Shown here: one piece after another, positions 6,146 to 26,844 of the stretch
Layout: every line of letters starts with the position of its first letter
Numbering within the stretch: the stretch's first letter is position 1
Assembly (NCBI GenBank): GCA_964409365.1
Contig: CAYPCX010000012.1
Coordinates: forward strand, 178-64,177
Direction of reading: 5' to 3'
DNA: 64,000 nt
Origin: an uncultured Planctomycetia bacterium
GTDB lineage: Bacteria; Omnitrophota; Gorgyraeia; Tantalellales; Tantalellaceae
Program-made: the position numbers and the translations under genes
Notes under the pieces: model-generated
Seen by the model: the letters and a program-made list of their open reading frames with translations, nothing else
Told to the model about the DNA's origin: nothing
Databases searched by the model: none

Positions 6146-7534
<1,389 letters not shown>

Positions 7535-7588: not shown

Positions 7589-7627
7589 TAAAAAAAGGCG
7601 TTCTCCCGTAAGGGGAAGAACGCCTTT
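7589..7627 (-). terminator. rho-independent terminator after Fe-ADH, sited just upstream of gdhA SD
   Basis: Hairpin aggcgttctcccc..ggggaagaacgcct then U-run on minus strand. Confidence 0.7.
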
Positions 7628-7704
7628 GTTCTTTGCCTTATTCGTATGACTTTTGCCCTGTAATTATCTACGATTTCACCGTATCCGTCAAGAAAAAATT
7701 GCGG

Positions 7705-9824: not shown

Positions 9825-12401
9825 TCAATCCGTAAAACAGATAAGCCGCTGTGAAACAACGTCCGATATGAGCTTGAGGCCCGCTTCATCAATGTCGAAG
9901 ACCTTTATTATACCTTTATAATCCGCCGCCTCAGGGACCAGTTCGGGAAATTTATCCTTGAAACGTTCCACCCACTCCCTGTTGAAGAACACGTCCTCTC
10001 TTTCAGGGAATATCGCGACATAAAAAATATTGGCCTCCACGAGGTCCTGAAAAAAGTGCGTGCCGAATGAAAGTTCCGGTATCAGGTTCCCGCCTTCAAA
10101 AGATATCTCCCCGAGAACGGCGATATTGTTTATCTCAGCGAATGTTACCGGTACTCCCAACGATGGCGTCGTCGTACCCCACCTGCCCGGACCTAAAAGG
10201 AGGACCGGTAACTCGTTCTTATCGCCGACCTGCTTGTTAAGTTTACCTACTATGCGAGCGACATCGTATTTGCGCCTGACCGGAAGGGCGCAATAATCTT
10301 CCGGGTCCACATATATGATCCTTTTTATGGGCTGCAACGTGTTCCCCCCGAAGAAATAACCCCCCGACTCCAGGAAGATCTTTCCCTTTTCGACGTGTCC
10401 GGGCATTTCAATCCTTTTTTCCTCGCCCTTGGTCTGGAGGGGCCTGCACTGCAAGAGGTTTATACGGAACGTGCCGTCCTTAGTATAATTCACGGTGAAC
10501 TCTATATCTATCGGATAGTTGTATTTGGCCTCCAGGGTCTTGAGTATCTTCCCGAACGTCTCCGTGAACAGGCCCTTTGAAAGAAGCTCGTCGAACGTCA
10601 ATATCCAGTAATCCACGTTCCTGCCGCTGCGCTCCTTGACCTCCCGGGACATCTCATAGTCGCGCACTGCTATGCGGTCCAGCACCTCGGGATCGGGTCC
10701 CTTCTCTATCATCTCCGGCAAAGACACCGTCCTGAACCTGTTCTCCTTCACGTCGATCAGGTCCACTTCATGCTGTGAATACTTCCGCACATCCTTCATG
10801 TCGGCGTGGGGCCTGAGAAGCGGCTTGTCGATCGCCGCTATCCTCGGGTAGTCCCCCTCGACCCTGTTAACGGCGCGCGTACCCAATCCGTATACAACGC
10901 GCAGCATCCCGGCTTCGGGATCCATCTCCTTTTTCCACACGTAAGTGTTGTAGGAAACACCGACACCGGCGAGGTCCGGATAAAAATAGTCTTCGTGCGG
11001 GGACCCGGATACTCTCTGAACTAACAGCGCCATCTGCTCGTCAAGGCGGTCCAGCCCCCTCTGTTGCCTGTAGGTCAGGGCATCCTCGTTCATCGTACTG
11101 GCATATATCCTCCTTACGGCTTCGGCGAATTGCACGTAACGCTGTTCCGGCGTACCCTGATTAGCGCAGAATATGCTCTCGTATTTCCCCGCGAAGGCAT
11201 TGCCGAACCCGTCCTCAAGAAGGCTGCTGGACCTCACTATTATGGGCGCCTGCCCGAAATACTCTATCATCTGCTGGAAATTCTCCATTATTTCTTCCGG
11301 GAAATTTCCATAGAGCATTTTCTCGCCCAACACGGCCGCGGCTTCGAAATACCCTTCACTGGTCTTCTGTTCCATGCGGAGCTTCCACCAACCGTTCTGC
11401 ACTATATAGGAATAGAAGACGTCCGAACCGATGTAAAAAGAGTCGTGCGGCTCGGATAGCTCATCCCACTTCAAAGAACCCTCTTTTGATATCATCTTCC
11501 TGGCAAGGAGCATGCCTACCGCCTTGCCGCCTATGACCCCCGTACCTATGAGCCGCGACTTTACCTCCAGGAGGTCCTCCAGCGTAAAGTGCTCCCTGGC
11601 CAGTTCCAGTATCCGTTTGTCCCTCGAGATCATGATAGCCGTTAATTTATCGATCATTTTCTTCTTTTCTGCCCGGGGCGCCGAAGAATTTACCATCTCT
11701 TCGGCCGCGAGGAACAGGCGGTCCCAGTAATCAAGGTATCTCGTCGCGCCTTCAGCTCCTTTCTTATGAATATGGGAGAGTATCCGTGCCGCGTCGATGC
11801 TGTCGGCCACGGAACTGAATTCCTCGCCTTTCCTGAGATGCGGCAGGAACATGGTCGGAGAATAACGGTTCCAGACCTTGAGAGGATGTACGTAACAGCT
11901 ACCCTCGTACTTGTAAACGTCTATCAGAAGCTGCGTCGTTTCACGGATGCGGGCTATGGTCTTGAATGAATGGCTGTTCCTGAGCAGCGAAAAATAGGCG
12001 ATCGTATCCAACTCATAAAGGAACGGGCATGTGACCATGAAGAAGTTGCCTATCATCAGATCCGTGGCCCATACCGTCAAAAGGTACGAAAGGCAGTCGA
12101 ACACATAGTAAGCTCCCACACCCTCGGCCGCTATTATCTTGTTAACCTGCGTGGTGAACGCTTCGAACCCGCCGGCCGCGTCCAACTGGTGTATCACGAC
12201 GTTCGGCCCCGGTTCCACGAGCGGCGCGTGGTCGGCGAACCTCATATAGACCGTCTTTTTCTCCGAATCCGCGGCCGTCTTAACGTAGGGCCGGACAAAC
12301 TCATGAAAATCCTCTATGTCGTCGACCTGCCATACCACATTGTCGCCGGCCCTCAATCCGGTCAGTATCCTATCAAGGCCTTTCAATCCCGTGCTTATCA
12401 T
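9825..12401 (-). CDS. PEP synthase / pyruvate-phosphate dikinase N-terminal (ATP-grasp) domain protein with degenerate RecA/KaiC-like N-terminus
   Basis: 858 aa; central region resembles the PPDK_N/PEP-utilising ATP-binding domain; N-terminal GLKGLDRILTGL...without P-loop. Confidence 0.45.
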   Translation of the reverse strand: MISTGLKGLDRILTGLRAGDNVVWQVDDIEDFHEFVRPYVKTAADSEKKTVYMRFADHAPLVEPGPNVVIHQLDAAGGFEAFTTQVNKIIAAEGVGAYYVFDCLSYLLTVWATDLMIGNFFMVTCPFLYELDTIAYFSLLRNSHSFKTIARIRETTQLLIDVYKYEGSCYVHPLKVWNRYSPTMFLPHLRKGEEFSSVADSIDAARILSHIHKKGAEGATRYLDYWDRLFLAAEEMVNSSAPRAEKKKMIDKLTAIMISRDKRILELAREHFTLEDLLEVKSRLIGTGVIGGKAVGMLLARKMISKEGSLKWDELSEPHDSFYIGSDVFYSYIVQNGWWKLRMEQKTSEGYFEAAAVLGEKMLYGNFPEEIMENFQQMIEYFGQAPIIVRSSSLLEDGFGNAFAGKYESIFCANQGTPEQRYVQFAEAVRRIYASTMNEDALTYRQQRGLDRLDEQMALLVQRVSGSPHEDYFYPDLAGVGVSYNTYVWKKEMDPEAGMLRVVYGLGTRAVNRVEGDYPRIAAIDKPLLRPHADMKDVRKYSQHEVDLIDVKENRFRTVSLPEMIEKGPDPEVLDRIAVRDYEMSREVKERSGRNVDYWILTFDELLSKGLFTETFGKILKTLEAKYNYPIDIEFTVNYTKDGTFRINLLQCRPLQTKGEEKRIEMPGHVEKGKIFLESGGYFFGGNTLQPIKRIIYVDPEDYCALPVRRKYDVARIVGKLNKQVGDKNELPVLLLGPGRWGTTTPSLGVPVTFAEINNIAVLGEISFEGGNLIPELSFGTHFFQDLVEANIFYVAIFPEREDVFFNREWVERFKDKFPELVPEAADYKGIIKVFDIDEAGLKLISDVVSQRLICFTD

Positions 12402-12452: not shown

Positions 12453-13904
12453 TCACATCTCCGGGAGGCCACTATCTCCCATGAGATAAATGTCCATATC
12501 GCGCGCCGCTCTACGGCCTTCCGAGATAGCCCATACAACGAGCGACTGGCCGCGGCGCATATCTCCCGCGGAAAAAATCTTGTCCGCCGAAGTCTTATAA
12601 TTATCGCCTGTACGGACGTTCCCTCTTTCATCCAGATCCACTCCGGCCTCTTCAAGAAGCCCATCGTGTTCGGGATGGATAAAACCCATTGCCAGAACGA
12701 CCAGGTCCGCTTCGACCTCAAAGGCGCTTCCCGGCACCTCTTTCATGACCGGACATGTTCTTTCATCCGTTTTCCCGAACTCGACCTGAACGCACTCCAG
12801 CTTCTTCACGTTCCCGCGCTTATCGCCCACGAACTTCTTCGTAAGAACAGCCCAGCGCCTTTCGGCGCCTTCCTCGTGGCTCGAAGAGGTCTTCAGCAGC
12901 ATGGGATAGGTCGGCCAAGGCTGGTCTTCCATACGGCACTCGGACGGCTGTTCAAGAAGCTCTATCTGGACCACGCACGAGGCACCCTGCCTGTTAGCGA
13001 TACCCACACAATCGGATCCGGTGTCCCCGCCCCCGATAACGACCACCTTTTTCCCGGAGGCGTCGATCAGCTCCTCCGCCGGTATGGACTCACCCGCCAC
13101 TCTTCTGTTCGACTGGACCAGGTAATCCATAGCGAAATGTATACCGTTAAATTTACGTCCTTTTATATCGAGGTCCCGCGGGACCCTTGAACCGCCCGCC
13201 AGACAAACCGCGTCGTATCCCTCCAACAGTTCTTTCATCTGCTTATCGACTCCTACGTTCACCCCCGTGAAGAATCTTATCCCGGCCTTTTCCATAAGCT
13301 TGACGCGGCGGTCGATGACCCACTTCTCCAGTTTGAAATCCGGTATGCCGTAGCGCAGTATCCCGCCCGGTTTATCGTCCCTTTCGAAAACATCCACTTC
13401 GTGCCCGGCAACGTTAAGCTGGTCCGCGCAAGACAAGCCCGCCGGACCCGAACCGATGATCGCTATTCTTTTTCCCGTCCGCAAAAGAGGCACCCTCGGT
13501 TTGATGACCCCCTCTTTAAAAGCGTGCTCTATTACGGCCAATTCGTTCTCCCTTATCGTAACGGGGTCGTCATTTATGCCGAGTACGCACGCGAACTCGC
13601 ACGTCGCCGGGCATACACGCCCGGTGATCTCCGGCAGATTGTTGGTCGCCTGGAGCATCTGGAAAGCCCGTTCCCAATGTCCCCTGAACATCAGGTCGTT
13701 CCATTCTGGTATATAATTGCCGACCGGGCATCCCCAGTGGCAGAAAGGCGTACCGCAATCCATGCAGCGCGACGCCTGGTCCACTGACTGGCGCTCACCG
13801 CGCATTATACTAACATCTTTATAGTCCTTAACGCGCTCACATACCGGCCGGCATGCCGATTCCTGTCTTGTTATCTTTAAAAACCCTTTGGGATCACCCA
13901 TCAT
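12453..13904 (-). CDS. gltD: glutamate synthase (NADPH) small subunit
   Basis: 483 aa; N-terminal Fe-S cysteines, two Rossmann GxGxxG sites (IIGSGPAGL; VIGGGDTG). Confidence 0.9.
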
Positions 13905-16900
13905 ACACCTCCAGGAGGCCCAGACGGGCCTGGGTGTCCTTGCCCCCGAGCACGCGTTTGTACTCGAACGGTATTACTTTAACGAACTTCCTGGCCGTTT
14001 CTTTGAAGTTCTTCATGACTTCTTTCGCGCGGGGGCTTCCCGTATACTTATGATGATTATGGAGAAGATCGTAAACAAGCGTCCTGTCATCGTCATCAAG
14101 ACGTTCCAGGTGTACCATCTTCTTGTTGCATCTTGATTCGAAACTGCCATCCTCGTCGTAAACATAGGCAATACCGCCGGACATGCCCGCCGCGAAGTTC
14201 TTGCCGGTTTTCCCCAAGACCACCACTCTTCCGCCGGTCATGTATTCACACCCATGGTCGCCTACTCCTTCGACGACCGCATAAAGCCCTGAATTTCTCA
14301 CACAGAACCTTTCGCCGGCCCTGCCGCGTATATACGCTTCCCCTGAAATAGCCCCGTAAAAAGTGGTATTCCCGATCAATATGTTCTCTTCCGCCTTAAA
14401 ACCCGCTTTCTTGTCGGGATAGATTATTATCTTACCGCCGGATATACCTTTACCCACGTAATCGTTCGCCAGGCCTTCCAACTCGAAAGTCACTCCCTTG
14501 GCGAGAAAAGCGCCGAAACTCTGGCCGGCTATGCCCTTGAATCTGCAACTTATTGAATCGGCTGGAAGTCCCATCTCCCCGTGCATCTTGCAGACCTCAC
14601 CGCTCATCATGGCCCCGGTCGCCCTGTCGGTATTATTGATGGGCATCTCTAACTTGACAGTGCCTGATCTTTTTATCACCTCGCCCGCCAGTTCCATAAG
14701 TTTCCGGTCAAGAACACGGTCGATACCATGATGCTGCCCGCAGGTGCAGCGCCTATGGTCCTCATCCTCGAGGTCCGGCTTATAGAGGAGGCGCGAGAAG
14801 TCCAGCCCTCTGGCCTTCTCCGGGATAATATCCTCGTTGATCTCCAACAGTTCCGTGCGACCCACAAGTTCGTCGATCTTTCTTACTCCAAGGGAGGCCA
14901 TTATCTCGCGCAGTTCCCTTGCCACGAAGAGCATGTAGTTCACCACATATTCCGGCCGTCCCTGGAACCTCTTTTCCAGCATCTCGTCCTGTGTGGCGAC
15001 ACCCACGGAACAGTTATTGAGGTGACAGTGCCTCAGCATCACGCATCCCAGCGTGATCAGTACCGCGGTACAAAAACCGAACTCTTCGGCGCCAAGTAAT
15101 GCGGCTATGGCGACGTCCCTTCCCGTACGCATCTGGCCGTCGGTCTGGAGGCGCACGCGGCTGCGGAGGCCGTTAAGGACAAGCGTCTGGTGCGTCTCGG
15201 AAAGTCCCAGTTCCCAGGGAAGGCCGGCATGCCTTATCGAACTTCTGGGCGATGCGCCCGTGCCCCCGTCCCCGCCGGATATCAGTATCATGTCGGCATG
15301 CCCTTTGGCCACGCCCGCCGCTATGGTACCCACGCCTATTTCGGAAACGAGTTTCACGCTGATACGTGCGCGCGGATTAGCGTTCTTCAGGTCGAAAATA
15401 AGCTGGGCCAGATCCTCTATAGAATAAATGTCATGATGCGGAGGCGGGGATATAAGTGTAACGCCCTGCGTTGTATACCGCGTCCGCGCTATTATCGCGC
15501 TTACCTTATGTCCCGGGAGCTGTCCCCCCTCTCCGGGCTTGGCTCCTTGGGCTATCTTGATCTGGAGCTCATCGGCATTGGTCAGGTAATTTATCGTGAC
15601 ACCGAACCTGCCGGAAGCCACCTGCTTTATCGCGCTCCGGACGGAATCGCCGTTGGGCAGGGTGCCGAAACGGGCCGGGTCCTCTCCTCCTTCCCCCGTG
15701 TTCGACTTTGCCCCGAGACGGTTCATGGCAATGGCGATCGCCTCATGCACGCTCCTTGATATGGACCCGAAGCTCATCGCGCCTGTCGCGAACCGTTTCA
15801 CGATCTCTTCTACCGGCTCGACCTCTTCAAGCGGGACCGGTGCGGTCTTTTTGAACTTCAAAAGACCTCTCAGCGTTGTCGGGTTCTTTGACTGGTCGTT
15901 TATCAATCCGGAGAATTCCTTGAAGACGGAATAATCGTTATTCCTCACCGAGTCCTGCAGCTTGGCTATGCTTTCCGGGTTCCACAAATGGAACTCGCCG
16001 TCCCTCTTCCACTGGTATACGCCTCCGGTGTCCAAGTACGGCGTTTCTTCTCCCCTTTCGGGGTACGCGCGCTTGTGCCGCCGGAGCGTTTCTCTGGCGA
16101 TATCATCTATTCCCACTCCCCCTATCCTGGAGACCGTGCCCGTAAAATACTTTTCTATCACATCATCGGCTATCCCCAGGGCCTCGAATATCTGCGCCCC
16201 TCGGTAGCTCCTCATAGTGGAGATACCCATCTTTGAAAGGATCTTAAGGAGCCCCTTACGCACCGCATTTATATAATTCTTTTGTCCCTCCTCCACTTTC
16301 ATGTCCAGGTCGCCTTCCTCCACAAGCCGGGCCACAGCTTCATACGCGAGATACGGGTTGACGCAGTCGGCACCGTATCCCATAAGAAGGGCGAAATGAT
16401 GCACTTCGCGTGGTTCTCCGCTCTCGACTATTATCCCTATCTCTGAGCGTATGGACCTCCTTACGAGATGCTGATGAACCGCGCTCGTCGCCAGAAGCGC
16501 CGGAAGCGCCACGTTATACCTGTCCGCGCCCCGGTCGCTCAGTATTAAAAAGGTGAACCCTTTTTCTACGGCGTACTCGGCCTCAAAACATACCCTTTCA
16601 GTCGCCTGGACAAAATCGTTCTCCGATCCGCTGAAATAAGTGTAGATCGTCTTTGTCTTGAACCCGGCCGTATTCATTTCCCTTATGAGCTCAAGTTCCT
16701 CATCGGTCAGAACAGGGTTTCGCACCTTCAGCTTCCGGCAGTGCTCCCTGCCTTCTTCAAGTATGTTCTTGCCCTTACCCATGTAACTATCGAGATTCAT
16801 CACTATCTCTTCCCTTATAGGGTCGATCGCGGGATTGGTGACCTGGGCGAACAGCTGCTTGAAGTAACTGTAAAGCATTTGCGGCTTTTTAGAAAGGACC

Positions 16901-18420
16901 GCGTGCGGGGTGTCGTTCCCCATCGAACCGACCGGTTCCTTACCCTCCTCCGCCATGGGTTTTATTATTTCTTTTATGTCCTCGCGGGTGTAGCCGAACG
17001 CTTTCATGGCGGAAAGAGCGTCTTCCGCGTTCTTTGTCCTTATTCCCGTTGCGGGCAGATCATCAAGCGAGACCAGGTTATCTTTCAACCATTCACCGTA
17101 AGGCCGGCGGTCCGAGAGTTCCTTCTTGATCTCGGAATCCCCTACTAAACGGCCGCGTGCGGTATCCACAAAAAGCATCTTGCCGGGTTCCAGGCGACCC
17201 GAAACAGCTATATCGGCGGGGTCAAAGTCAAGGACACCCACCTCGGACGCCATCGCGACCATGCCGTTTCTGGTCACGATGTAGCGCGCCGGGCGCAGAC
17301 CGTTCCTGTCCAAGACGGCGCCCACTTCGGTACCGTCCGTAAAAGCTATCGCCGCGGGGCCGTCCCAAGGCTCCATGAAACAGGCATTATACTCATAGAA
17401 ATCCCTTAATGACCCGGTCGTGAACGGGTCTTTTTCCCACGCGGCGGGTATAAGCATCATCATGACGTGCTCAAGCGGCCTTCCCGCCAGCGCGAGAAGC
17501 TCGAAAACATTATCTATGATGGCCGAATCGCTGCCGCCTTCGACGATGACCGGTTTTATCTTCTGTATATCCCGGCCGAAAAGTTCGCTCCCGAGAAGCC
17601 GCTCTTTCGCGCGGAACCAGTTCATATTGCCCCTGAGAGTGTTTATCTCACCGTTATGCGCAAGGAACCTGAACGGCTGCGCCAGGTCCCAGGTGGGAAA
17701 AGTATTAGTGCTGTACCTTGAATGGACAAGCGCTATGGCGCTTTCCACGTCGTTTTGCTTGAGGTCGGGATAAAAATCCCTGACCTGTCCCGGCATGAGA
17801 AGACCCTTGTAGCTGACGGTCCTTGAAGAAAGGTTGGTGATATAGAAAAATGTCTTTTGTTCTATTCCGGAAGACTTGACCGTATTCTCGATACGTTTTC
17901 TTATAACATAAAGTTTCCTTTCGAAAGCAAGCTGGTCGCCCGTCCCCGTCCCTTTTCCGATAAAGACCTGTTTTATCACCGGCTTGGTCTGGCGCGCGCC
18001 CCTGCCTATCAGGGAATCGTCCACGGGCACATCGCGCCATCCCAGGATATCCCCGCCTTCTTCTTTTATGACTTTTCTGAAAACATCCTCGCAGAAGATC
18101 CTTTCGCTCCCCTCGGTGGGAAGAAAGACAATGCCGGTACCGTAATCACCTGGATCCGGCAATTCTATGCCCGCGTCAGAGGAGACCCTGGAATAGAACC
18201 TGTGGGGGATCTGGATCAGGATCCCCGCGCCGTCACCTGTCTTAGGGTCGGCGCCGACCGCGCCGCGGTGGCTCATCCTTTCCAGTATTTCTGTACCCTT
18301 TTGTATGATGTCGTGCGACTTCTTGCCGTTCATCTCGCAGACGAACCCCACCCCGCAGCTGTCGCGTTCGAACCGCCGGTCATAAAGTCCCTGTTTTTCA
18401 GGCAAGCGTCCTTTTTTCAT
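13894..18420 (-). CDS. gltB: glutamate synthase large subunit
   Basis: 1508 aa; N-terminal CGVGF amidotransferase Cys, FMN/Fe-S central domain, C-terminal GXGXG domain. Confidence 0.95.
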   Translation of the reverse strand: MKKGRLPEKQGLYDRRFERDSCGVGFVCEMNGKKSHDIIQKGTEILERMSHRGAVGADPKTGDGAGILIQIPHRFYSRVSSDAGIELPDPGDYGTGIVFLPTEGSERIFCEDVFRKVIKEEGGDILGWRDVPVDDSLIGRGARQTKPVIKQVFIGKGTGTGDQLAFERKLYVIRKRIENTVKSSGIEQKTFFYITNLSSRTVSYKGLLMPGQVRDFYPDLKQNDVESAIALVHSRYSTNTFPTWDLAQPFRFLAHNGEINTLRGNMNWFRAKERLLGSELFGRDIQKIKPVIVEGGSDSAIIDNVFELLALAGRPLEHVMMMLIPAAWEKDPFTTGSLRDFYEYNACFMEPWDGPAAIAFTDGTEVGAVLDRNGLRPARYIVTRNGMVAMASEVGVLDFDPADIAVSGRLEPGKMLFVDTARGRLVGDSEIKKELSDRRPYGEWLKDNLVSLDDLPATGIRTKNAEDALSAMKAFGYTREDIKEIIKPMAEEGKEPVGSMGNDTPHAVLSKKPQMLYSYFKQLFAQVTNPAIDPIREEIVMNLDSYMGKGKNILEEGREHCRKLKVRNPVLTDEELELIREMNTAGFKTKTIYTYFSGSENDFVQATERVCFEAEYAVEKGFTFLILSDRGADRYNVALPALLATSAVHQHLVRRSIRSEIGIIVESGEPREVHHFALLMGYGADCVNPYLAYEAVARLVEEGDLDMKVEEGQKNYINAVRKGLLKILSKMGISTMRSYRGAQIFEALGIADDVIEKYFTGTVSRIGGVGIDDIARETLRRHKRAYPERGEETPYLDTGGVYQWKRDGEFHLWNPESIAKLQDSVRNNDYSVFKEFSGLINDQSKNPTTLRGLLKFKKTAPVPLEEVEPVEEIVKRFATGAMSFGSISRSVHEAIAIAMNRLGAKSNTGEGGEDPARFGTLPNGDSVRSAIKQVASGRFGVTINYLTNADELQIKIAQGAKPGEGGQLPGHKVSAIIARTRYTTQGVTLISPPPHHDIYSIEDLAQLIFDLKNANPRARISVKLVSEIGVGTIAAGVAKGHADMILISGGDGGTGASPRSSIRHAGLPWELGLSETHQTLVLNGLRSRVRLQTDGQMRTGRDVAIAALLGAEEFGFCTAVLITLGCVMLRHCHLNNCSVGVATQDEMLEKRFQGRPEYVVNYMLFVARELREIMASLGVRKIDELVGRTELLEINEDIIPEKARGLDFSRLLYKPDLEDEDHRRCTCGQHHGIDRVLDRKLMELAGEVIKRSGTVKLEMPINNTDRATGAMMSGEVCKMHGEMGLPADSISCRFKGIAGQSFGAFLAKGVTFELEGLANDYVGKGISGGKIIIYPDKKAGFKAEENILIGNTTFYGAISGEAYIRGRAGERFCVRNSGLYAVVEGVGDHGCEYMTGGRVVVLGKTGKNFAAGMSGGIAYVYDEDGSFESRCNKKMVHLERLDDDDRTLVYDLLHNHHKYTGSPRAKEVMKNFKETARKFVKVIPFEYKRVLGGKDTQARLGLLEVYDG

Positions 18421-18431
18421 GCTTCTTACCC

Positions 18432-18662
18432 CTATATTTTGTACCTTCTTACGTTGATGTCAAGCTTCCTTATCTTCACGCGCAGAGTATTCCGGTTTAT
18501 ACCCAGGATCTTCGCGGCAATGGACTGGTTGCCGTAAGACCTTTCGAGCGCCTTTTCGATAAGCGCCTTCTCAGTACCGCGTATGACTTTATCGTATACC
18601 TTACCTTTATCCTTTGTAAAAAACAAACTATCAATGCTTTTTGCTGCTTCCCTGAACATCAT
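18432..18662 (-). CDS. standalone Fis-family HTH DNA-binding protein
   Basis: 76 aa; C-terminus GNQSIAAKILGINRNTLRVKIRKL matches the Fis/NtrC HTH_8 pattern. Confidence 0.6.
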   Translation of the reverse strand: MMFREAAKSIDSLFFTKDKGKVYDKVIRGTEKALIEKALERSYGNQSIAAKILGINRNTLRVKIRKLDINVRRYKI

Positions 18663-18710
18663 CTCGCTACCTCCCGGCTAAAACTGCCCAGATATTGTGC
18701 ATGTAACAGT

Positions 18711-18769
18711 AAAAAAATACCCTTTCCGGAGGCGGGTCCTTCGACCTTTCCGAAAAGGGCATCTTTGCC
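18711..18769 (-). promoter_or_regulatory. leader attenuator upstream of fis-like/gltBD: ANTAR-type hexaloop hairpin overlapping an intrinsic terminator
   Basis: Minus strand: ggc-AAAGAU-gcc whose 3' arm is the 5' arm of terminator cccttttcgg/ccggaaaggg followed by UAUUUUUUU. Confidence 0.5.
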
Positions 18770-18867
18770 TTACTTACCGGTCCCTTCCGCGGGACCTATA
18801 TAAATAAAAAACCCCCGGAAACTTCGTCCCCAAGGGCCTCATTGCCGCTTAACTCCTTTGTTGAATT

Positions 18868-18897
18868 AATTGTAACACTTAGTGGTCTCATTGTCAA
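18868..18897 (-). promoter_or_regulatory. sigma70-type promoter (TTGACA-17-TACAAT) downstream of glnK stop, reading into fis-like/gltBD leader
   Basis: Minus strand reads ttgacaatgagaccactaagtgttacaat. Confidence 0.5.
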
Positions 18898-18945
18898 GTA
18901 AAAAATTGCCTAATAATTAAGCTATTATTGATTAAACCTTAAACA

Positions 18946-19287
18946 TCATCCTATCGCCACGCCTCCCTTCTCCCCCGTACGTATACGTATGCACTCGGGA
19001 AGGTCGAGAACGAAGATCTTACCGTCGCCTATGTTGCCGGTCCGTGCGCCTTTTATTATGGCGTCGATCGTAGGCTGGACGAAATTCTCATTTACCGCTA
19101 TTTCGAGACGCACTTTTTTCAGTAAATTTACGTCGTGCACTACGCCCCTGTAAGTTTCGGTATAGCCTTTCTGCTGGCCGCAGCCAAGGGCGTTAGTGAC
19201 CGTCATCTTGTAGACTTCCGCTTCATATAGCGCCTTTTTTACGTCCGGCAGCTTATGCGGCTGTATCATAGCAATTATAAGTTTCAT
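18946..19287 (-). CDS. glnK: nitrogen regulatory protein P-II
   Basis: 113 aa; T-loop ...[12 protein letters not shown]... with uridylylation Tyr; directly downstream of amtB. Confidence 0.9.
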
Positions 19288-19308
19288 GATCTCCCCTCCT
19301 TATATTTT

Positions 19309-20577
19309 CTACTTTGTGGTGAATATCTGGAAACCCGCGTAAGCCTCCATGCCGTGCTCGGTTATATCGAGCCCTTTGAGCTCTTCGTCCCTTGAGACCC
19401 TCAGGCCCATGATCATGTCGATCGCCTTGAAGATTATCGTCATACCCACCAGAACAAAAAGCACAACGGCACCCACGCCCAGGGCCTGGATACCCAGCTG
19501 GGTAAACCCGCCGCCGTGAAAAAGACCATCCCGGGCGAGGCCGAGCGCTTTGTGCCCGAAAAGGCCCACAGCCAGCGTGCCCCATACACCGTTCATCATG
19601 TGTACGGGAACAGCGCCTACGGGATCATCCACTCGGACCTTGTCCAGAAAAAGCGTTCCGAACACAACTAACACTCCCGCCACGAGGCCTATGATCATTG
19701 ATTCGAACGGAAGCACATAAGCGCACGGTGCCGTAATAGCGACAAGTCCCGCTAACGCACCGTTCATGGTCATTGAAAGATCGGGTTTACCGCAAATCTT
19801 CCAGGCAACGGCCATAGCCGTGAACCCGCCGACCGCCGCCGCGAGATTCGTGTTCATCGCGACTTTCGCCATGAGACTTCCGTTACCGACGCTTAAGGTA
19901 GACCCGGGATTGAACCCGAACCACGCGAACCAGAGTATAAGCGCGCCCAAAGAAGCCAGCGTCATGGAATGGCCCTCTATAGCGTTGGCCGACCCGTCCT
20001 TGTTGTATTTGCCTATCCGGGGACCCAGCATCATGGTCCCGACCAGTGCCGCCGTTCCTCCTACGGCGTGGACGACCGTGGACCCGGCAAAATCACCGAA
20101 ACCCAGGCCAGCCAGCCAACCGCCGCCCCATATCCAGTGTCCCACGAAAGGATAGATCGTGGCCGATATGAGAAAAGAGTATATAAGATAGCACTGGAAT
20201 TTCATCCTTTCGGCTATGCCCCCGGCGACTATAGTCGCGGCGGCCCCGCAAAAGACCGCATGGAAAAGCCACGCCGCCTCAAGAGGAATAGTCCCTTCAT
20301 GGGTGGCGTTCAACAGAAAGAACCCGTTGAACCCCATGAAACCGTTCCCTTTCCCGAACATGAACGCATAACCGAAAATGAAAAATCCCATGGACGCCAT
20401 ACAGAAATCCAGGAAGTTGTTCATAAGCACGTTACATGTGTTCTTTGTACGGATAAGACCGGCTTCAAGCATGCCAAACCCGGCCTGCATTATAAAGACC
20501 AGGAACGCGGCGATAAGTACCCATAAAGTGTCTATCCCCGCCGTACTTGCGAATTGTGTTGTCTCTGTGCCTGTCAT
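19309..20577 (-). CDS. amtB: ammonium transporter
   Basis: 422 aa, 11 TM; Amt family. Confidence 0.9.
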   Translation of the reverse strand: MTGTETTQFASTAGIDTLWVLIAAFLVFIMQAGFGMLEAGLIRTKNTCNVLMNNFLDFCMASMGFFIFGYAFMFGKGNGFMGFNGFFLLNATHEGTIPLEAAWLFHAVFCGAAATIVAGGIAERMKFQCYLIYSFLISATIYPFVGHWIWGGGWLAGLGFGDFAGSTVVHAVGGTAALVGTMMLGPRIGKYNKDGSANAIEGHSMTLASLGALILWFAWFGFNPGSTLSVGNGSLMAKVAMNTNLAAAVGGFTAMAVAWKICGKPDLSMTMNGALAGLVAITAPCAYVLPFESMIIGLVAGVLVVFGTLFLDKVRVDDPVGAVPVHMMNGVWGTLAVGLFGHKALGLARDGLFHGGGFTQLGIQALGVGAVVLFVLVGMTIIFKAIDMIMGLRVSRDEELKGLDITEHGMEAYAGFQIFTTK

Positions 20578-20601
20578 TGTTCCCCTCCTCTTTTATTGCT
20601 A

Positions 20602-21453
20602 TCAATAATCAAAACTTATCGTGATACCACCGTAAAATTCGCTCTCGGAGGCATCATTATATGTATCATGATCCAATATAAGTGAATAGGCCACGCTGGG
20701 CGTCACCGTGAAGTGGTTCAGGAAAGGTACGCTCACCTCTGCCGAGAACACCATATCGGCCCAGCCCGACTTATCCGTCCACTGTTCGTCGTTATACCCC
20801 GTGGTCATGGCCGCTGTCGCGGATATGCCGCTTCGGTCGAACTCGAACGTGTGGGATATCCCGAACAGGAAATACGACCCGTCCCCGCCGCCATCCGGGT
20901 TACCTTTGCCTCTTCCCACGTCCCAGTACCAGGTAAAGAACGGCTGGAGCATAATATCGTAGGATACGCCAAAATACACTTCATGCGTGTCGAAGAACTT
21001 GTCGTCCCAGTCGACGTTAGGAAAAGTGTAATAGATATAACCGACAGACGGCGTGAGCGGTTTCAGAAGATCAGGAATGTCGAAGTCCATCTTTTCCGAC
21101 ATCTCGCCCACATTAAAGGTGTAATCGACGGTGTAATCTATCTCGGTGAACTCCAGATATCGGCCGTTATCTTTTTCCTTGTCGCTGTTCAGCGTGTAGT
21201 TCGCCCACCAGTCGAACGTAAGGCCCCACTTGGACACCGAACCGTCGAGCTGCATTACCGGCTCGTCCCCAAGGTTCCACCCTCTCCATATATATTTGGT
21301 CATGAACGCCGTCGACAGTGAGACGTCCGGCATCCATCCCTCTTTTTCCGGAAGCCAGTCCTTGTCCGTGTCCAGGACCGCATACGCGTTCGCGGCAATA
21401 CCAAGGAACAACGCGACGGCTATCCAGATCAGCTTACCGTTCATTTTGGTCAT
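20602..21453 (-). CDS. putative outer-membrane beta-barrel (porin-like) protein co-oriented with amtB-glnK
   Basis: 283 aa; signal peptide (ANAYA), alternating amphipathic strands rich in Y/W/G/D, C-terminal aromatic ...SFDY. Confidence 0.45.
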   Translation of the reverse strand: MTKMNGKLIWIAVALFLGIAANAYAVLDTDKDWLPEKEGWMPDVSLSTAFMTKYIWRGWNLGDEPVMQLDGSVSKWGLTFDWWANYTLNSDKEKDNGRYLEFTEIDYTVDYTFNVGEMSEKMDFDIPDLLKPLTPSVGYIYYTFPNVDWDDKFFDTHEVYFGVSYDIMLQPFFTWYWDVGRGKGNPDGGGDGSYFLFGISHTFEFDRSGISATAAMTTGYNDEQWTDKSGWADMVFSAEVSVPFLNHFTVTPSVAYSLILDHDTYNDASESEFYGGITISFDY

Positions 21454-21537
21454 TTTTTTCCTCCTTTAAATAAAAAAGCCCTTTCTGATCTCTCCTAGAT
21501 CAAAAAGGGCTTCTATGCCTTGTAAACTTCTTTGTTT
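21454..21537 (-). promoter_or_regulatory. ANTAR-type dual-hairpin antiterminator element plus intrinsic terminator in leader of porin-amtB-glnK operon
   Basis: Minus strand: P1 aaac-AAAGAA-gttt (21524..21537), 4-nt linker, P2 ggc-AUAGAA-gcc (21508..21519) overlapping terminator aagcccttt...aaagggctt (21476..21512), U-tract, SD AGGAGG, ATG. Confidence 0.55.
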
Positions 21538-21569
21538 TTACACGCCTCGACTCCGCGGGGCGCGCCCTG

Positions 21570-22274
21570 CTACCACTTTCTTATCTCATGCGATATGATT
21601 ATGGCCTCCGCTATCTCCTTCATGCTCACGCGTTTGTTCATGCTGGATTTCCTTATAAGGTTGTAGGCCTCGTTCTCCGAAAGGTCCTGCTCCTTCATGA
21701 GGATCCCTTTCGCCTTTTCCACCTTCTTCCTGGTATCCAGCTCTTCCTGTATGACCTTCGTCTTGACCATGAGCTCGGTATTCTCGATGGCTACCGCCGC
21801 CTGGTTGGCCACAGCGCTCAACATGTTCACGTCGCTTTTCGTATACTCGTATGACTCCACGGTATAGACGTTGATCACACCGACGACCCTGTCCTTTACC
21901 ATCATCGGCACGCTCAGCATCGAGACAAGGCCTTCTTCCTTCGCCAGTTTTTTCTCTTTATATCTTTTGTCCTTCGCTACATCCTTGATCATAATGGGCT
22001 TTTTATCCTTGGCCACGAGGCCCACGATACCCTCGCCCACCTTGAGCGACCTTTCCTTGAGGTACTTTTGGCTCATCGACTGGGTCGCCCTGATCTTGAG
22101 CTCCCGCGTATCGGCATCGAGAAGCCACAGCGAGCATATCTTGGCGCTCATCACGTTAGCCGTGAGGTTCACCACGAGCTTGAGGATATCCTCAAGGTAC
22201 AGGTCGCTCGTTATGGCCTTGCTGATCTTGTTCAATGTCGCAAGGTAATCCTTCTCCGATGACTTCTTCATCAT
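21570..22274 (-). CDS. GAF-ANTAR RNA-binding antiterminator regulator
   Basis: 234 aa; N-terminal GAF-like domain; C-terminal ANTAR helices ...AKGILMKEQDLSENEAYNLIRKSSMNKRVSMKEIAEAII... Confidence 0.8.
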   Translation of the reverse strand: MMKKSSEKDYLATLNKISKAITSDLYLEDILKLVVNLTANVMSAKICSLWLLDADTRELKIRATQSMSQKYLKERSLKVGEGIVGLVAKDKKPIMIKDVAKDKRYKEKKLAKEEGLVSMLSVPMMVKDRVVGVINVYTVESYEYTKSDVNMLSAVANQAAVAIENTELMVKTKVIQEELDTRKKVEKAKGILMKEQDLSENEAYNLIRKSSMNKRVSMKEIAEAIIISHEIRKW

Positions 22275-22280
22275 ACGCTC

Positions 22281-24431
22281 CTACATAAGGAACAGCATCT
22301 CCGCGTAAGACGGCAGCGGCCAGACATTTTCCGGGATGAGGCCTTCGAGTGCGTCCACTATCTTACGCAGCTCGTTCATATCCGAGATCATCCCGGATGT
22401 CGAGTCCTTTTCTATGCTTTTTTCCAGCTCCTTGACGCCTTTCAGCGCGTCCTCGGTAAGTGAACATATCCCTTTCAAAAGCACCTGGGCCTCGGGGTTC
22501 TTGCAACCGCACCCCTGTACGTCCTCGATCGTGCCCGCGAGGTCGCTCTGGTATTCAAGCGCCGCCGGGATGATCATCGTATTGGCCATTGTTAGAGCTA
22601 TTCCCGCCTCGATCGTTATCGCCTTCTCGTACTGTTCCATGTATATCTCGCCGCGGGACAAAAGCTCCGACTTGGAGAGCACCTCGTGCCTTTCGAAAAG
22701 GTCCACTATCCTTTTATCCTTCACGACCTTGAGCGCTTCGGGAGTCGTTTTCAGGTTAGGCAGACCTCTCTTCTTGGCCTCTTTGTGCCACTTCTCGGTG
22801 TAATTGTCGCCGTCGAAGAGTATCCTTTTATGCTTCTTGACGATGTCCCGCAATATGGCCTGCAATGACTTGTTGAAATTCTTTCCGGCTTCTTTGTCGG
22901 CTTCCAGTTTCGTGCATATCTCATCCAGGGCGTCCGCCACTATGGTGTTAAGGACCACGTTGGAGCCCGCGCAGCTCTGGTTCGATCCCACCATGCGGAA
23001 CTCGAACTTGTTGCCCGTAAAAGCAAAGGGCGAGGTCCTGTTCCTGTCGGTCACGTCCCTGGGAAGGGTCGGGATCGAGGTAACACCCAGTTCTATAGTT
23101 TTAGCTTTTTTAGATGCCTTTGTTTTCCCTTTGCCGCCGATCTGTTCTATTATCTCCGTCAGCTGGTCCCCCAGAAATATCGACAGTATGGCCGGCGGGG
23201 CCTCATTCGCGCCGAGCCGGTGGTCGTTACCCGCCGTGGCGACGCTTGCCCTCAGCATATCGGCATAGGTATCGATGGCCTTCATCAGGGCACACACCAT
23301 GGTAAGGAATTTCGCGTTCTCCCTCGGATTATCCCCGGGGGCAAGCCAGTTCTTCCCGTCGGGCCCGCAGATCGACCAGTTGTTGTGCTTGCCCGAGCCG
23401 TTCACGCCGGCGTAGGGCTTTTCATGAAGAAGGCACACAAGTCCGTATTTCTCGGCCGTCTTCTTGAGGACTTCCATGGTCACCATGTTGTGGTCCACCG
23501 AAAGGTTCTGCTCCTCGAAAACGGGAGCTATCTCGAACTGCGCCGGGCATACCTCGTTGTGGCGGGTCTTAGCCGGGATACCCAGCCTCCAGAGTTCGCG
23601 GTCCAGGTCGTCCATGAACGACAGTACCCTTGTCTTGATGGCCCCAAAGTAATGGTCTTCCAGCTGCTGGTGTTTGGCCGGGGCCCTGCCGAAAAGCGTC
23701 CTGCCGGTCTGTATCAGGTCGAGCCGCTTTTCATAATGCGCCTTGTCGATGAGGAAATATTCCTGTTCCGGCCCCAGCGTGGAGTACGCCCTCTTATTTT
23801 TCACGTCTATCCCGAACAGCTTCGCCAGACGGCAGACCTGCCTGGAAAGGGCGTTCACCGACCTTAAAAGAGGCGTCTTTTTATCGAGGGCCTCACCGTG
23901 ATAAGAATAAAACGCCGTCGGTATACAAAGGGTGGCGCCGTTCTCCCCTTCTTTTATAAAGGCGGGAGATGTGGGGTCCCATGCCGTGTAACCGCGCGCC
24001 TCAAAAGTAGCCCTTAAGCCCCCGGACGGAAAACTTGACGCGTCAGGCTCGCCTTTTATAAGCTCTTTTCCGGAAAAGGATAGCATTACACCCCCTTCGT
24101 CGTCAGGGTTGATGAACGCGTCATGCTTCTCGGCTGTAGCTCCGGTAAGCGGCTGGAACCAATGGGTAAAGTGGGTCGCCCCTTTCGAAACAGCCCAGGT
24201 CTTCATGGCGTCGGCTACCTCGTCCGCGATCTTCGGGTCCAGGGAACGGCCCTCCCTTATCGTCGATATGAGCGACTTATAAGCTGTATCCGACAGGTAG
24301 TTCCTCATATTCTTGATGCTGAACACGTTCTCACCGTAGAACTCCGGAACGTTATCGATATTCAACATTCTTTCTCTTTTTGCCATGGTCTTTTCTCCTT
24401 CTTTTACCTTCAAAGCTGTTGTTCTTAACAT
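22281..24431 (-). CDS. glnN: glutamine synthetase type III
   Basis: ~717-733 aa, GSIII size; ORF-track start at 24482 is GTG; ATG at 24431 (MLRTT) or 24386 (MAKRER) with SD more plausible. Confidence 0.8.
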
Positions 24432-24549
24432 TTTAACACCCTTCCGTTTAAAATCAACATATAAAAAAACGTCCCATTCCACCGCCAGCTTTGCGGCTGA
24501 AATAGGACGTCTTCATCCTGCCTGTCTTGTCCGGGACCGCGGTGCCCGG

Positions 24550-24581
24550 AAATAAAAAAGGCGTTCTTCCCAGAACGCCTC
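24550..24581 (-). promoter_or_regulatory. intrinsic terminator/attenuator hairpin inside the glnN 5' leader
   Basis: aggcgttc-ugggaa-gaacgccu then UUUUUAUUU on minus strand, downstream of the 24615..24642 promoter and upstream of glnN start. Confidence 0.55.
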
Positions 24582-24614
24582 ATCGCAATTTGTGCACCAT
24601 CTTCGTGCAATTCT

Positions 24615-24642
24615 ATTTTACATGTTTTGCTGTTTTTGTCAA
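24615..24642 (-). promoter_or_regulatory. sigma70-type promoter (TTGACA-17-TAAAAT) for glnN
   Basis: Minus strand reads ttgacaaaaacagcaaaacatgtaaaat just after the hydrolase stop codon. Confidence 0.5.
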
Positions 24643-24648
24643 TACCTT

Positions 24649-26844
24649 TTATCTCACTTTTTTCACTTTACAGGCCGTGTCTTGTGAAAACTCCCGGATA
24701 TTTAACCGCAAAACCCCGCTCTTTGTGGATACCTTTTCCCTGGATATGACATCTCCCTTGAACGTGTCCCACCATTCCACCTTGTAAGCGCCTTCTTCGA
24801 GGTCAAAGACATCCAGGTAAGCGTTTTTGATAGGGGCCGGTTCTTTTGAATAGTAGGTGTTCTTCCAGTTATAGCTCTTATTCTGTATCCAGAAAAGGAT
24901 CTCATCCCCCACCACAAGACCGAGACACCTCGCGTTGGCGTATATTTCGCTGACGTAATCCGTCAGTGTGATCTCTTTTATGCCTATCCAGTCCTTCCCG
25001 GAGTTCTCGATACGGATAGCATGCTTCCCGGCGGGCACGCGTATTTCCAGGAACTGGTCATATACACACTGATATACCTTTTTATCCCTGCGGTAAAGAC
25101 TTCTTTTCCAGGGACCTTCCTTGCCCGGCCCGGTAGTGAACTCCCGGTCCAGCACTTTTTTATCGTCAAGATAGACCAAAAGCCGCGCCTGGTGCGCGAC
25201 CATGCCGACCTTTATCCTGAAGTTCCCTTCGGACGGAAAATCCACGTGATAGACCTGCTTCCCGTCTAACTTCGCGCCTTTCTCTCCCTGGAGATATTTA
25301 GTCGGTGTTCCGCCGATCAGGTCCCCGTTCTTCAGAACGGTGAATTCCTTTGCGTAGACCTTGCCCCATTTATCTGCCGGTTTGATCGTAAGATCTTTCA
25401 GGGCCGGTTTCTTCTTAGGGGCCTTCTTCGAAATGACCTGGCTCGTCACGGGGACTTTAACTATTTCCGAATCCCAGTTCACCCCCCGGAGAAACGCGTT
25501 CAGGCCCTTATAATGAAAATAAAGGTTCTTCGGCCTGATATAAGTATCCCACCACCAGCCCATAGCTGAACCGAAATACCTGCTCAGCGCGGTAGCCCAT
25601 ATACTGTTGTGAAGCAGTGTTCCTTTTCCGCCCGGATCATAGACCTTGTCGTCCTTGCCGGCATCCATCCCTATCTCGGCTATGAGGAACGGCTTATCAT
25701 ATACGGCCGCGAGCTCATAAGACTTCTGTATGCTCTCACTCACCACGTCCTTCACGGTCCTGTTCCCGTACAGGTGGATAGTTATGACGTCAATGTCTTT
25801 CACCGACCAGACCTTGCCCTTGTCAAAGATCTCTCCCCAGGGATATCCCATGCTGGTGGTCAAAAACTGTCCGTGCGGGTTGATCTCTTTTACGAAGGCA
25901 GACATCTCCTCTATCCATTCTCTTGGCGCATTAAGCTCGTTCCAGAACTCGAACGCCAGGATATTAGGCGAATAGCTCCACCTGGAGATAATGTATCTCA
26001 ACTTGTTCTTGTACCAGCGTTTCGCTTCGGGATCGGTAAAAAGATCCTCCGGCCGCGTACAGGGCCCTCCGTTCTTCCTGTTATAGGGATTCATCCCCCA
26101 CCTGTCTTCTGACCAGGATCCCTTTTCGATCATCAGGTCTCCGTACGTCCCAAGGCAGAGTATTATATATATGCCCCTTTTCTTCGCAAGATCGAGAAGC
26201 TTATCCAGATCCAGGGAAGCGTCCCTGTCATACCTGCCCATTTTTTCCCACTCGATCTGGAACGACCACTCCGAAAGCCAAACCCTTGTAAGATTACACC
26301 CGTTCTTTTCCAGCTCAGTGAAATACCTGTCAAAAACGGAAAGGCTGTTCTCATACGCCCAGGCTATGTTATGCCCTATACCGAAAAATGGCTCTCCTGA
26401 ATCGAATACCAGGTAATACGGATTGTTCCTGCTGCGCCGCAGGAATCCCCTGTTTTCGCTTTTTCTTACGTCAAAATGGCGGGTCCCGGTATTTTCATCC
26501 AGGGTTTTCGCAGCCGCATGCAGGGAATAATCGTACCTGCCCGGAACAACAGGGGTAAACCTGACCTCCCACAAGGAGATACCAGTACCCTTCTTATTGT
26601 AAAGACAGAAAGCCGGGATGGTCACTCGTCCTCCGTCGGGCAGGGTTATCCTGGCCTCGACCTTCACGTTGCCGGGATCGTTGGGATTTCCGTTGAAATA
26701 AGGCAGGGTGAACTCTAATATGAACGGCTCATATTGCCTGACCTTTTGCGGGCCGCTTACTTCCAAAGCCGCAGCTGACGCCGCAAGAAAGCAAAGAAAC
26801 ACCGCGAAAGCGGTGATCGCGCGCCTGCAAAAACGGGTATTCAT
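24649..26844 (-). CDS. secreted TIM-barrel glycoside hydrolase (GH5/GH140-like) with N-terminal Ig-like domain
   Basis: 731 aa; signal peptide; FEFWNE (NE catalytic acid/base as in GH5 clan A); N-terminal beta-sandwich resembling DUF5060. Confidence 0.45.
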   Translation of the reverse strand: MNTRFCRRAITAFAVFLCFLAASAAALEVSGPQKVRQYEPFILEFTLPYFNGNPNDPGNVKVEARITLPDGGRVTIPAFCLYNKKGTGISLWEVRFTPVVPGRYDYSLHAAAKTLDENTGTRHFDVRKSENRGFLRRSRNNPYYLVFDSGEPFFGIGHNIAWAYENSLSVFDRYFTELEKNGCNLTRVWLSEWSFQIEWEKMGRYDRDASLDLDKLLDLAKKRGIYIILCLGTYGDLMIEKGSWSEDRWGMNPYNRKNGGPCTRPEDLFTDPEAKRWYKNKLRYIISRWSYSPNILAFEFWNELNAPREWIEEMSAFVKEINPHGQFLTTSMGYPWGEIFDKGKVWSVKDIDVITIHLYGNRTVKDVVSESIQKSYELAAVYDKPFLIAEIGMDAGKDDKVYDPGGKGTLLHNSIWATALSRYFGSAMGWWWDTYIRPKNLYFHYKGLNAFLRGVNWDSEIVKVPVTSQVISKKAPKKKPALKDLTIKPADKWGKVYAKEFTVLKNGDLIGGTPTKYLQGEKGAKLDGKQVYHVDFPSEGNFRIKVGMVAHQARLLVYLDDKKVLDREFTTGPGKEGPWKRSLYRRDKKVYQCVYDQFLEIRVPAGKHAIRIENSGKDWIGIKEITLTDYVSEIYANARCLGLVVGDEILFWIQNKSYNWKNTYYSKEPAPIKNAYLDVFDLEEGAYKVEWWDTFKGDVISREKVSTKSGVLRLNIREFSQDTACKVKKVR

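Follow-up and report, generated by a model that had tools for sequence, protein, structure and literature searches.

Candidate tandem ANTAR-type attenuators ahead of the glutamate synthase genes of an Omnitrophota bacterium

ANTAR antitermination and the glutamate synthase leader

Proteins with an ANTAR domain can relieve transcription termination by binding nascent leader RNA. In the established mechanism a dimeric protein recognizes two short hairpins, the second of which competes with the 5' arm of an intrinsic terminator; both carry hexaloops in which G at position 4 (G4), and usually A at position 1 (A1), is required (PMC3369931). The EutV-RNA structure reduces these demands, with G4 as the sole base-specific contact and a single hexaloop as the minimal site (PMC8934654). 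Sites of this type were predicted in 2012 before PII, ammonium transporter, and glutamate/glutamine synthase genes of Desulfotomaculum, Pelobacter, and others, at which time no protein of GAF-ANTAR architecture had been characterized (PMC3369931); the accessible part of a 2025 review names GAF-ANTAR only as a domain architecture (PMC12591593). Here we analyze a 64-kb stretch of DNA (contig CAYPCX010000012.1 of assembly GCA_964409365.1, hereafter the window) from a member of the Candidatus Omnitrophota, in which a leader with elements of this kind precedes a fis-like gene and the glutamate synthase genes gltB and gltD. The genes around it are all on the minus strand, as are the features given below unless marked otherwise.

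On sequence evidence, and with a probability of about 0.78, we read the 283 nt that separate glnK from the fis-like gene as a promoter with two successive ANTAR-type transcription attenuators downstream of it. Each would consist of a small 5' hairpin (P1) and a 3-bp GGC-hexaloop-GCC hairpin (P2), the 3' part of which forms the base of the terminator's 5' arm. The promoter, already proposed in an earlier sequence-only reading of this stretch, is of the sigma-70 type, TTGACA-17-TACAAT with a TG-extended -10 element (-35 at 18897-18892, -10 at 18874-18869), and agrees with the consensus at 11 of 12 positions. Transcription is predicted to start at about 18863-18861, on the first base of the first P1 hairpin, and the 208-nt leader has a folding z score of -5.4 against shuffled sequences.

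The sequence-only reading had placed a single attenuator in this leader; there are two in tandem, and the one it overlooked (attenuator 1, 18862-18798, between the promoter and attenuator 2) is the better consensus match of the pair. Attenuator 1 is a full dual-hexaloop unit, and each of its loops has A1 and G4: P1 is AAC-AAAGGA-GUU on a 3-bp stem (18862-18851), the linker is AAGC (4 nt), and P2 is GGC-AAUGAG-GCC, again with a 3-bp stem (18846-18835). Its terminator, GAGGCCCUUGGGGAC-GAA-GUUUCCGGGGGUUUU, forms 15 pairs (18840-18808, with a U-rich tail to 18798; -16 kcal/mol) and came to light both in a terminator scan and in the fold of the leader. The stem is followed by UUAUUU, the U-rich tail reading UUUUUUAUUU, and GAGGCC is common to P2 and the terminator's 5' arm.

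Attenuator 2 is the element first described, and both of the hairpins claimed for it are present. P1, GGUCCC-GCGGAA-GGGACC, has a 6-bp stem and a hexaloop with G1 and G4 (18796-18779); a 9-nt linker, GGUAAGUAA, leads to P2, GGC-AAAGAU-GCC, with a 3-bp stem (18769-18758). The terminator pairs AUGCCCUUUUCGGA with UCCGGAAAGGGUAU in a 14-bp outer stem around a small inner hairpin (18762-18717; -26.3 kcal/mol) and runs into a U7 tract (18717-18711). AUGCC belongs both to P2 and to the 5' arm of the terminator, so that the two folds are mutually exclusive. This overlap, together with an independent covariance model match (see “Specificity and conservation of the elements”), bears out the proposal of an ANTAR-like attenuator whose P2 overlaps its terminator. 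In folding calculations, enforcing P2 costs 10.4 kcal/mol in attenuator 2, where the truncated stem ends 5 nt before the U tract, and 6-13 kcal/mol across the six elements of the window.

EutV and the eutP leader of Enterococcus faecalis (PMC3369931, PMC8934654) have in common with this locus two short hexaloop hairpins with G4 (here with A1 in three of four loops), a P2 that overlaps the 5' arm of an intrinsic terminator, and ANTAR domains about 55% identical over 56 residues. The candidate regulator of the present locus, unlike EutV, has a GAF sensor in place of a phospho-receiver and needs no kinase; the linkers are of 4 nt in two of three sites, the P2 stem is a fixed 3-bp GGC/GCC, the targets belong to ammonium assimilation rather than ethanolamine use, and two attenuators stand in series in one leader. 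The Geobacter sulfurreducens GnfK/GnfR system, which acts on nitrogen-fixation genes (PMC2995071), is also a nitrogen regulon in which an ANTAR protein binds leader RNA, at a site CAGGCAANGGCGCC that lies at the 5' base of premature terminators and is the same GGC-hexaloop(AANGGC)-GCC hairpin. In that account GnfR is a kinase-activated response regulator under sigma-54/GnfM, and the targets named are nifH and nifEN, whereas the promoters here are sigma-70-like and the targets are glnA, amtB-glnK, gltBD, and gdhA. The predicted Desulfotomaculum and Pelobacter regulons likewise have several covariance model matches per genome and per transcription unit, but they come from other phyla, and no GAF-ANTAR architecture was assigned to their regulators (Ramesh et al. 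2012, PMC3369931). NasR at the Klebsiella nasF leader, and NasT, are one-component or sensor-coupled ANTAR proteins that relieve the leader terminator of a nitrogen operon and require an A1/G4 hexaloop; they differ in their signal, nitrate or nitrite, which acts by way of a NIT domain or NasS as partner, and in serving a single operon with a single attenuator (PMC7496416, PMC3795266).

The mechanism is the ordinary one of ANTAR antitermination, which in 2012 had already been predicted to act on nitrogen genes; here it would govern nearly the full set of ammonium-assimilation genes. What appears to be undescribed, as far as the searched literature shows, is that such elements occur in Omnitrophota, that they go with a GAF-ANTAR one-component protein, and that they are regularly arranged in tandem. 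Our literature search found no tandem ANTAR attenuators described as such, and a search joining Omnitrophota with ANTAR returned nothing relevant, its matches being to “Antarctic.” If correctly read, the locus would extend the control of nitrogen assimilation by ANTAR antitermination to an uncultivated phylum.

Specificity and conservation of the elements

Specificity was judged with a covariance model built from 30 sites of other genomes only, drawn from 80 loci that encode relatives of the GAF-ANTAR protein and holding no sequence from the window. Its alignment covers P1, the linker, P2, and 2 further nt, and leaves out the terminator. With filters off and both strands searched (128 kb), the model gave just three matches at E < 0.01, the E-values being rough since the calibration was shortened: the amtB leader (21537-21506; 34.5 bits, E = 7e-6), attenuator 1 (18863-18833; 28.7 bits, E = 1.5e-4), and attenuator 2 (18794-18756; 24.2 bits, E = 1.7e-3), with the next best at E = 0.21. 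Directly after each of the three stands a strong terminator, a feature that the model does not contain.

The sequence-only reading had also pointed to the likeness between P2 of attenuator 2 and the amtB leader (21521-21502), and on alignment the two agree at 17 of 20 positions (AAGGCAAAGAUGCCCUUUUC versus AAGGCAUAGAAGCCCUUUUU). Its further suggestion that one regulator serves both leaders gains computational support from the recovery of both by the same model and from the GAF-ANTAR gene within the cluster.

Simpler criteria discriminate to differing degrees. The string GGCAHWGAHGCC occurs three times in the window against 0.14 expected, the third copy (1708-1719, plus strand) being a chance match. 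A permissive dual-hexaloop descriptor with no terminator is too unspecific, with more than 100 window matches, and a P2-plus-terminator criterion by itself gives 13, about half of them chance-like. One exact copy of GGCAAAGATGCC, at 1708-1719 on the plus strand, was rejected as chance; it lies antisense within a trxB-like (thioredoxin-reductase-like) coding sequence, over the motif GIFAAGDV, and is a reminder of the background rate of the motif. The model's seeds were picked by required pairing, which would make a covariation test circular, and strand bias, a shuffle control on P1, and orthologues outside the training set were used instead.

In the 80 GAF-ANTAR loci, the strand of the ANTAR gene carries about 125 hairpin-plus-terminator sites with core stems of the GGC/GCC, GAC/GUC, AAC/GUU, and GAU/GUC types, and the opposite strand 3. 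A canonical P1 accompanies 25 of 48 GGC/GCC sites, compared with 2.7 +/- 1.6 in shuffles. The leaders of L081 and L084, two untrained loci, each receive two matches to the model upstream of the fis-like gene.

The genes downstream of sites in the 80 loci are glnA3, gltB, amtB, and glnK; previously unmapped open reading frames (ORFs) in that position include glutamate dehydrogenase (11), small glutamate synthases (7), and type I glutamine synthetase (5), along with amidotransferases, AmtB, PII, and the carbamoyl-phosphate synthase small chain. In the 30-sequence alignment neither loop ever departs from G4, and all four loops of the window leader have it; position 1 is freer, with 20 A and 5 G among P1 loops of related loci.

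The tandem plan itself recurs. Gene order glnA3-ANTAR-(outer-membrane protein)-amtB-glnK-(fis)-gltB-gltD is repeated in metagenome-assembled genomes (MAGs) of Omnitrophota, and a two-attenuator fis/gltB leader is found in six independent genomes (the window, L015, L030 [= L082], L081, L084, and L020). These leaders follow a common plan: TTGACA-17/18-TAnnAT, P1 placed 6-7 nt past the -10 element, P2 with terminator 1, and downstream of these another unit that has terminator 2. The promoter stands at the same place in seven of eight orthologous leaders. The orthologues retain G4 and the GGC/GCC (or AGC/GCU) stems, while they differ in linkers and terminator stems. A single unit is seen in the fis/gltB leaders of L008, L002, and L026, and tandem pairs are present in 18 of the 80 related loci. 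Up to three ANTAR-type attenuators in series are found in one leader elsewhere (L050 1146-1297, L001 10773-10893, L064 2855-2973, and others).

A second set of 80 metagenome loci (L081-L160), collected around homologues of the 76-aa Fis-like protein, marks the limit of this conservation. They show the Fis-like gene to be real and conserved; most have it directly upstream of gltB, and most have no ANTAR elements ahead of it; the model with default filters gave only 4 matches, and the tandem leader is confined to the close relatives L081, L082 (= L030), and L084. Since the more distant Fis-like/gltB loci mostly carry no element, the tandem leader is clade-limited. In some loci the Fis-like gene adjoins the ANTAR gene instead. 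Some distant Fis-like homologues may have an N-terminal extension, where the rule for extending start codons may overshoot.

A candidate regulator and the rival explanations

The candidate cognate antiterminator is a 234-aa GAF-ANTAR protein encoded at 21570-22274, 2.7 kb upstream of the glutamate synthase leader (Pfam GAF_2, 5e-23; ANTAR, 5.3e-20), with more than 7000 homologues and 75-84% identity across Omnitrophota MAGs, an identity that places the window in this phylum. Its ANTAR domain aligns to EutV (6wsh, E = 2.2e-12), Rv1626, and NasR, and retains an AY...SMNKR stretch with the Tyr and Met implicated in hexaloop binding by EutV, an equivalence that assumes a 2-residue offset in numbering. 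The GAF domain (21574-22247) has as nearest solved relatives 3e0y, the GAF domains of PtsP/EI-Ntr (3ci6, 2.5e-16; 3trc), and NifA-like Nlh1. JGI labels homologues “GAF and PtsI domain” proteins.

A working model can be drawn from these parts. By default both terminators would fold, and transcripts, whether begun at the leader's own promoter or reading through from amtB-glnK, would stop at about 18806 or 18711. In the induced state the active dimeric GAF-ANTAR protein would bind the hexaloops as they emerge from polymerase, with the invariant G4 as the expected base-specific contact; a bound P2 would stay closed, each terminator would lose its lowest 5-6 pairs, and RNA polymerase could then transcribe fis-like, gltB, and gltD. 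Binding by this particular protein, like termination and antitermination themselves, we infer from the sequence arrangement. The finding that G4 is the sole base-specific contact and a single hexaloop the minimal site (PMC8934654) would fit the invariant G4, the variable position 1, and the single-hairpin site at gdhA.

With two checkpoints in series, read-through probabilities should multiply, which by analogy with tandem riboswitches would give a tighter off state and a steeper response than one site. Tandem thiamine pyrophosphate (TPP) riboswitches or T-boxes place two complete terminator switches in series in this way, and multiplicative, more digital control is expected of them; those are ligand- or tRNA-sensing RNAs, whereas both units here would be protein-dependent ANTAR sites. 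The arrangement thus allows one to ask whether serial protein-dependent attenuators sharpen a response. Elements of the same kind stand before glnA and the ANTAR gene (two), before the genes for the candidate outer-membrane protein, AmtB, and GlnK (one), and before gdhA (one), and one regulator could accordingly co-control ammonium uptake, glutamine synthetase (GS), glutamate synthase (GOGAT), and glutamate dehydrogenase (GDH) while feeding back positively on its own synthesis.

The signal is more speculative. EI-Ntr's GAF domain binds glutamine (PMC4848567), and since the GAF domain here is PtsP/EI-Ntr-like, glutamine, possibly with 2-oxoglutarate, can be proposed as the ligand. Our guess, offered as a hypothesis only, is that the protein would be active at low glutamine and that low glutamine and/or high 2-oxoglutarate would be sensed through the PtsP-like GAF domain. 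A wider proposal is tentative, and we would sooner bet against it than for it: that the protein is a one-component nitrogen-status sensor in which binding of glutamine and/or 2-oxoglutarate switches RNA binding, and that Omnitrophota and some Desulfobacterota-like lineages control ammonium assimilation by attenuation only. Were it true, glnA, amtB-glnK, gltBD, gdhA, and the regulator would be controlled essentially by transcription attenuation alone, and the tandem attenuators would act as a multiplicative gate replacing transcription factors of the NtrBC, GlnR, or NtcA type.

Several points weigh against our reading of the leader and its regulator, in addition to the rough E-values given above. 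The P1 loop of attenuator 2 has G rather than A at position 1. In attenuator 1, enforcing P2 leaves a 9-bp residual stem that ends 2 nt from the U run, so steric blocking by the bound protein must be assumed. Linkers of 5-12 nt work in the E. faecalis eut leader, and eutP was impaired with linkers of 3 and of 14 nt (Ramesh et al. 2012, PMC3369931); the 4-nt linkers of attenuator 1 and the amtB leader fall below that range. This clade most often has linkers of 3-5 nt, and the range that works may differ for its protein. Placing gdhA under the same positive control as GS-GOGAT would be physiologically unusual. The organism is known as an uncultivated MAG, and the view is limited to 64 kb of its genome.

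That last limit feeds the alternative that survives best, although we consider it improbable: the elements are of ANTAR type but are read by another ANTAR protein encoded elsewhere (for example a REC-ANTAR protein like GnfR), the neighboring GAF-ANTAR protein having other targets. Such proteins are possible beyond the stretch in view; five related loci (L059, L069, L074, L079, and L080) have two ANTAR paralogues, and of 73 loci only 32 have a site, by the strict hairpin-plus-terminator descriptor, in the 300 nt that follow the GAF-ANTAR gene. Against this, in the window and in many loci the GAF-ANTAR gene is itself part of the regulated cluster and has an attenuator directly downstream of it, and the high identity of the protein across Omnitrophota is paralleled by retention of the P2 consensus features. 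No second ANTAR gene was noticed in the window, where no dedicated scan for one was made.

Much less probable is that the hairpins are plain tandem intrinsic terminators of amtB-glnK, with incidental hexaloops and a promoter that reads through inefficiently or is non-functional. From the glnK stop codon (18946) to the promoter no further terminator was found, so both leader terminators would also have to end amtB-glnK transcripts; on our reading, upstream read-through would then come under the same control. A plain terminator makes no sense of a promoter kept upstream of it in nearly all orthologous leaders, nor of hexaloop hairpins that fit a model trained on other genomes, the same arrangement after promoters at glnA and gdhA, or sites so strongly biased to one strand and to nitrogen genes.

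We give still less credence to a metabolite riboswitch, for instance one for glutamine, or another protein-independent RNA switch in control of the terminators. Other phyla do use glutamine riboswitches for nitrogen genes, and the z score shows this leader to be highly structured. The window has no match at gathering score to any Rfam family, glutamine riboswitches included, and a search of 18400-24800 at E up to 5 gives just far-sub-threshold miRNA/sRNA noise over terminator hairpins. The conserved parts are two hairpins of 12-18 nt, among which no pocket-forming junction is kept, while terminator stems and linkers vary freely.

Least probable of all, and barely worth entertaining, is leader-peptide attenuation by translation of a 22-codon ORF (MRPLGTKFPGVFYLYRSRGRDR) with AAGGAG 9 nt upstream, since the ORF from the same AUG in orthologous leaders is 13, 57, 34, or 6 codons long or absent, the only shared residues, M-[RMK]-P-[LP], follow from the RNA motif AUGANGCCC, orthologues have AAAGAUG or AAAGUUG where AAGGAG stands here, no run of a regulatory amino acid occurs, and the ORF spans terminator 1. 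The string that the sequence-only reading had listed with its Shine-Dalgarno (SD) sequence does exist; as a gene it was rejected, having neither conserved length nor conserved SD. Its AUG is loop positions 2-4 of the attenuator 1 P2, and its AAGGAG is the P1 loop with the first base of the P1 3' arm: attenuator 1 read as coding sequence. For annotation, the ORF should not be called, and leaders of this type are better treated as regulatory RNA.

ANTAR-type attenuation read by the neighboring GAF-ANTAR protein is the interpretation we carry forward. It would connect a very well conserved protein with a defined RNA site and with a clear regulon of GS, GOGAT, GDH, AmtB, and PII. Short RNA sites, a 234-aa protein, and a candidate ligand suggested by the PtsP-like GAF domain make the locus a clean test system; pairing that protein with a compact, defined RNA regulon is the most useful lead to come from it, and the pairing is testable.

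Gene cluster and sister elements

Genes of the cluster follow in the transcription order GH5-like gene, glnA, GAF-ANTAR gene, gene for a 283-aa protein, amtB, glnK, the 283-nt spacer, fis-like, gltB, and gltD. Upstream of the spacer are glnA (type III glutamine synthetase; 22281-24482 as listed), the gene for the 283-aa protein (20602-21453; no Pfam match), amtB (19309-20577), and glnK (18946-19287). The first gene after the leader encodes a 76-aa protein of Fis-type helix-turn-helix (18432-18662; Pfam HTH_8, 2.5e-14), followed by the large and small subunits of glutamate synthase, gltB (13894-18420) and gltD (12453-13904); gdhA (glutamate dehydrogenase) lies farther on, at 6146-7525.

The leader shared by the genes for the 283-aa protein, AmtB, and GlnK holds one attenuator (21468-21537): AAAC-AAAGAA-GUUU, the linker ACAA, GGC-AUAGAA-GCC, an 18-bp terminator, and U6. 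A GC-rich hairpin, GCGCGCC...GGCGUGU (21540-21565), lies between the ANTAR stop codon and the P1 of this leader.

Upstream of glnA a leader with two attenuators (24462-24642) begins with the promoter TTGACA-16-TAAAAT (24642-24615). Unit 1 comprises UGCAC-GAAGAUG-GUGCA and UGC-GAUGAG-GCG with a terminator at 24581-24558, and unit 2 comprises GGAU-GAAGAC-GUCC with a terminator at 24510-24469; the GAU-AAAGAC-GUC class is found upstream of glnA3 in many loci. The GTG start listed for glnA (24482, by the longest-ORF rule) falls within the second terminator; translation probably starts at the ATG at 24386 instead. The ANTAR gene lies downstream of these attenuators and is co-transcribed with glnA, which would imply positive autoregulation.

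The gdhA leader (7590-7691) has the promoter TTGACG-17-GATAAT (7691-7663) and a single hexaloop hairpin, AAGAAC-AAAGGC-GUUCUU, which overlaps its terminator. Hairpins of the AAC-AAAGGC-GUU class are found upstream of gdh in 11 other loci.

Two neighbors of the cluster's main genes are themselves of interest. At least 12 Omnitrophota loci encode the 283-aa protein at the same place, after the ANTAR gene and before amtB, with 41-71% identity; it may be an outer-membrane channel for ammonium. Following gltD by 51 nt, and probably in the same operon, is the gene for an 858-aa protein with a PPDK_N (ATP-binding) domain (9825-12401); its homologues lie directly upstream of the ANTAR gene in the deltaproteobacterial-type loci L074 and L080.

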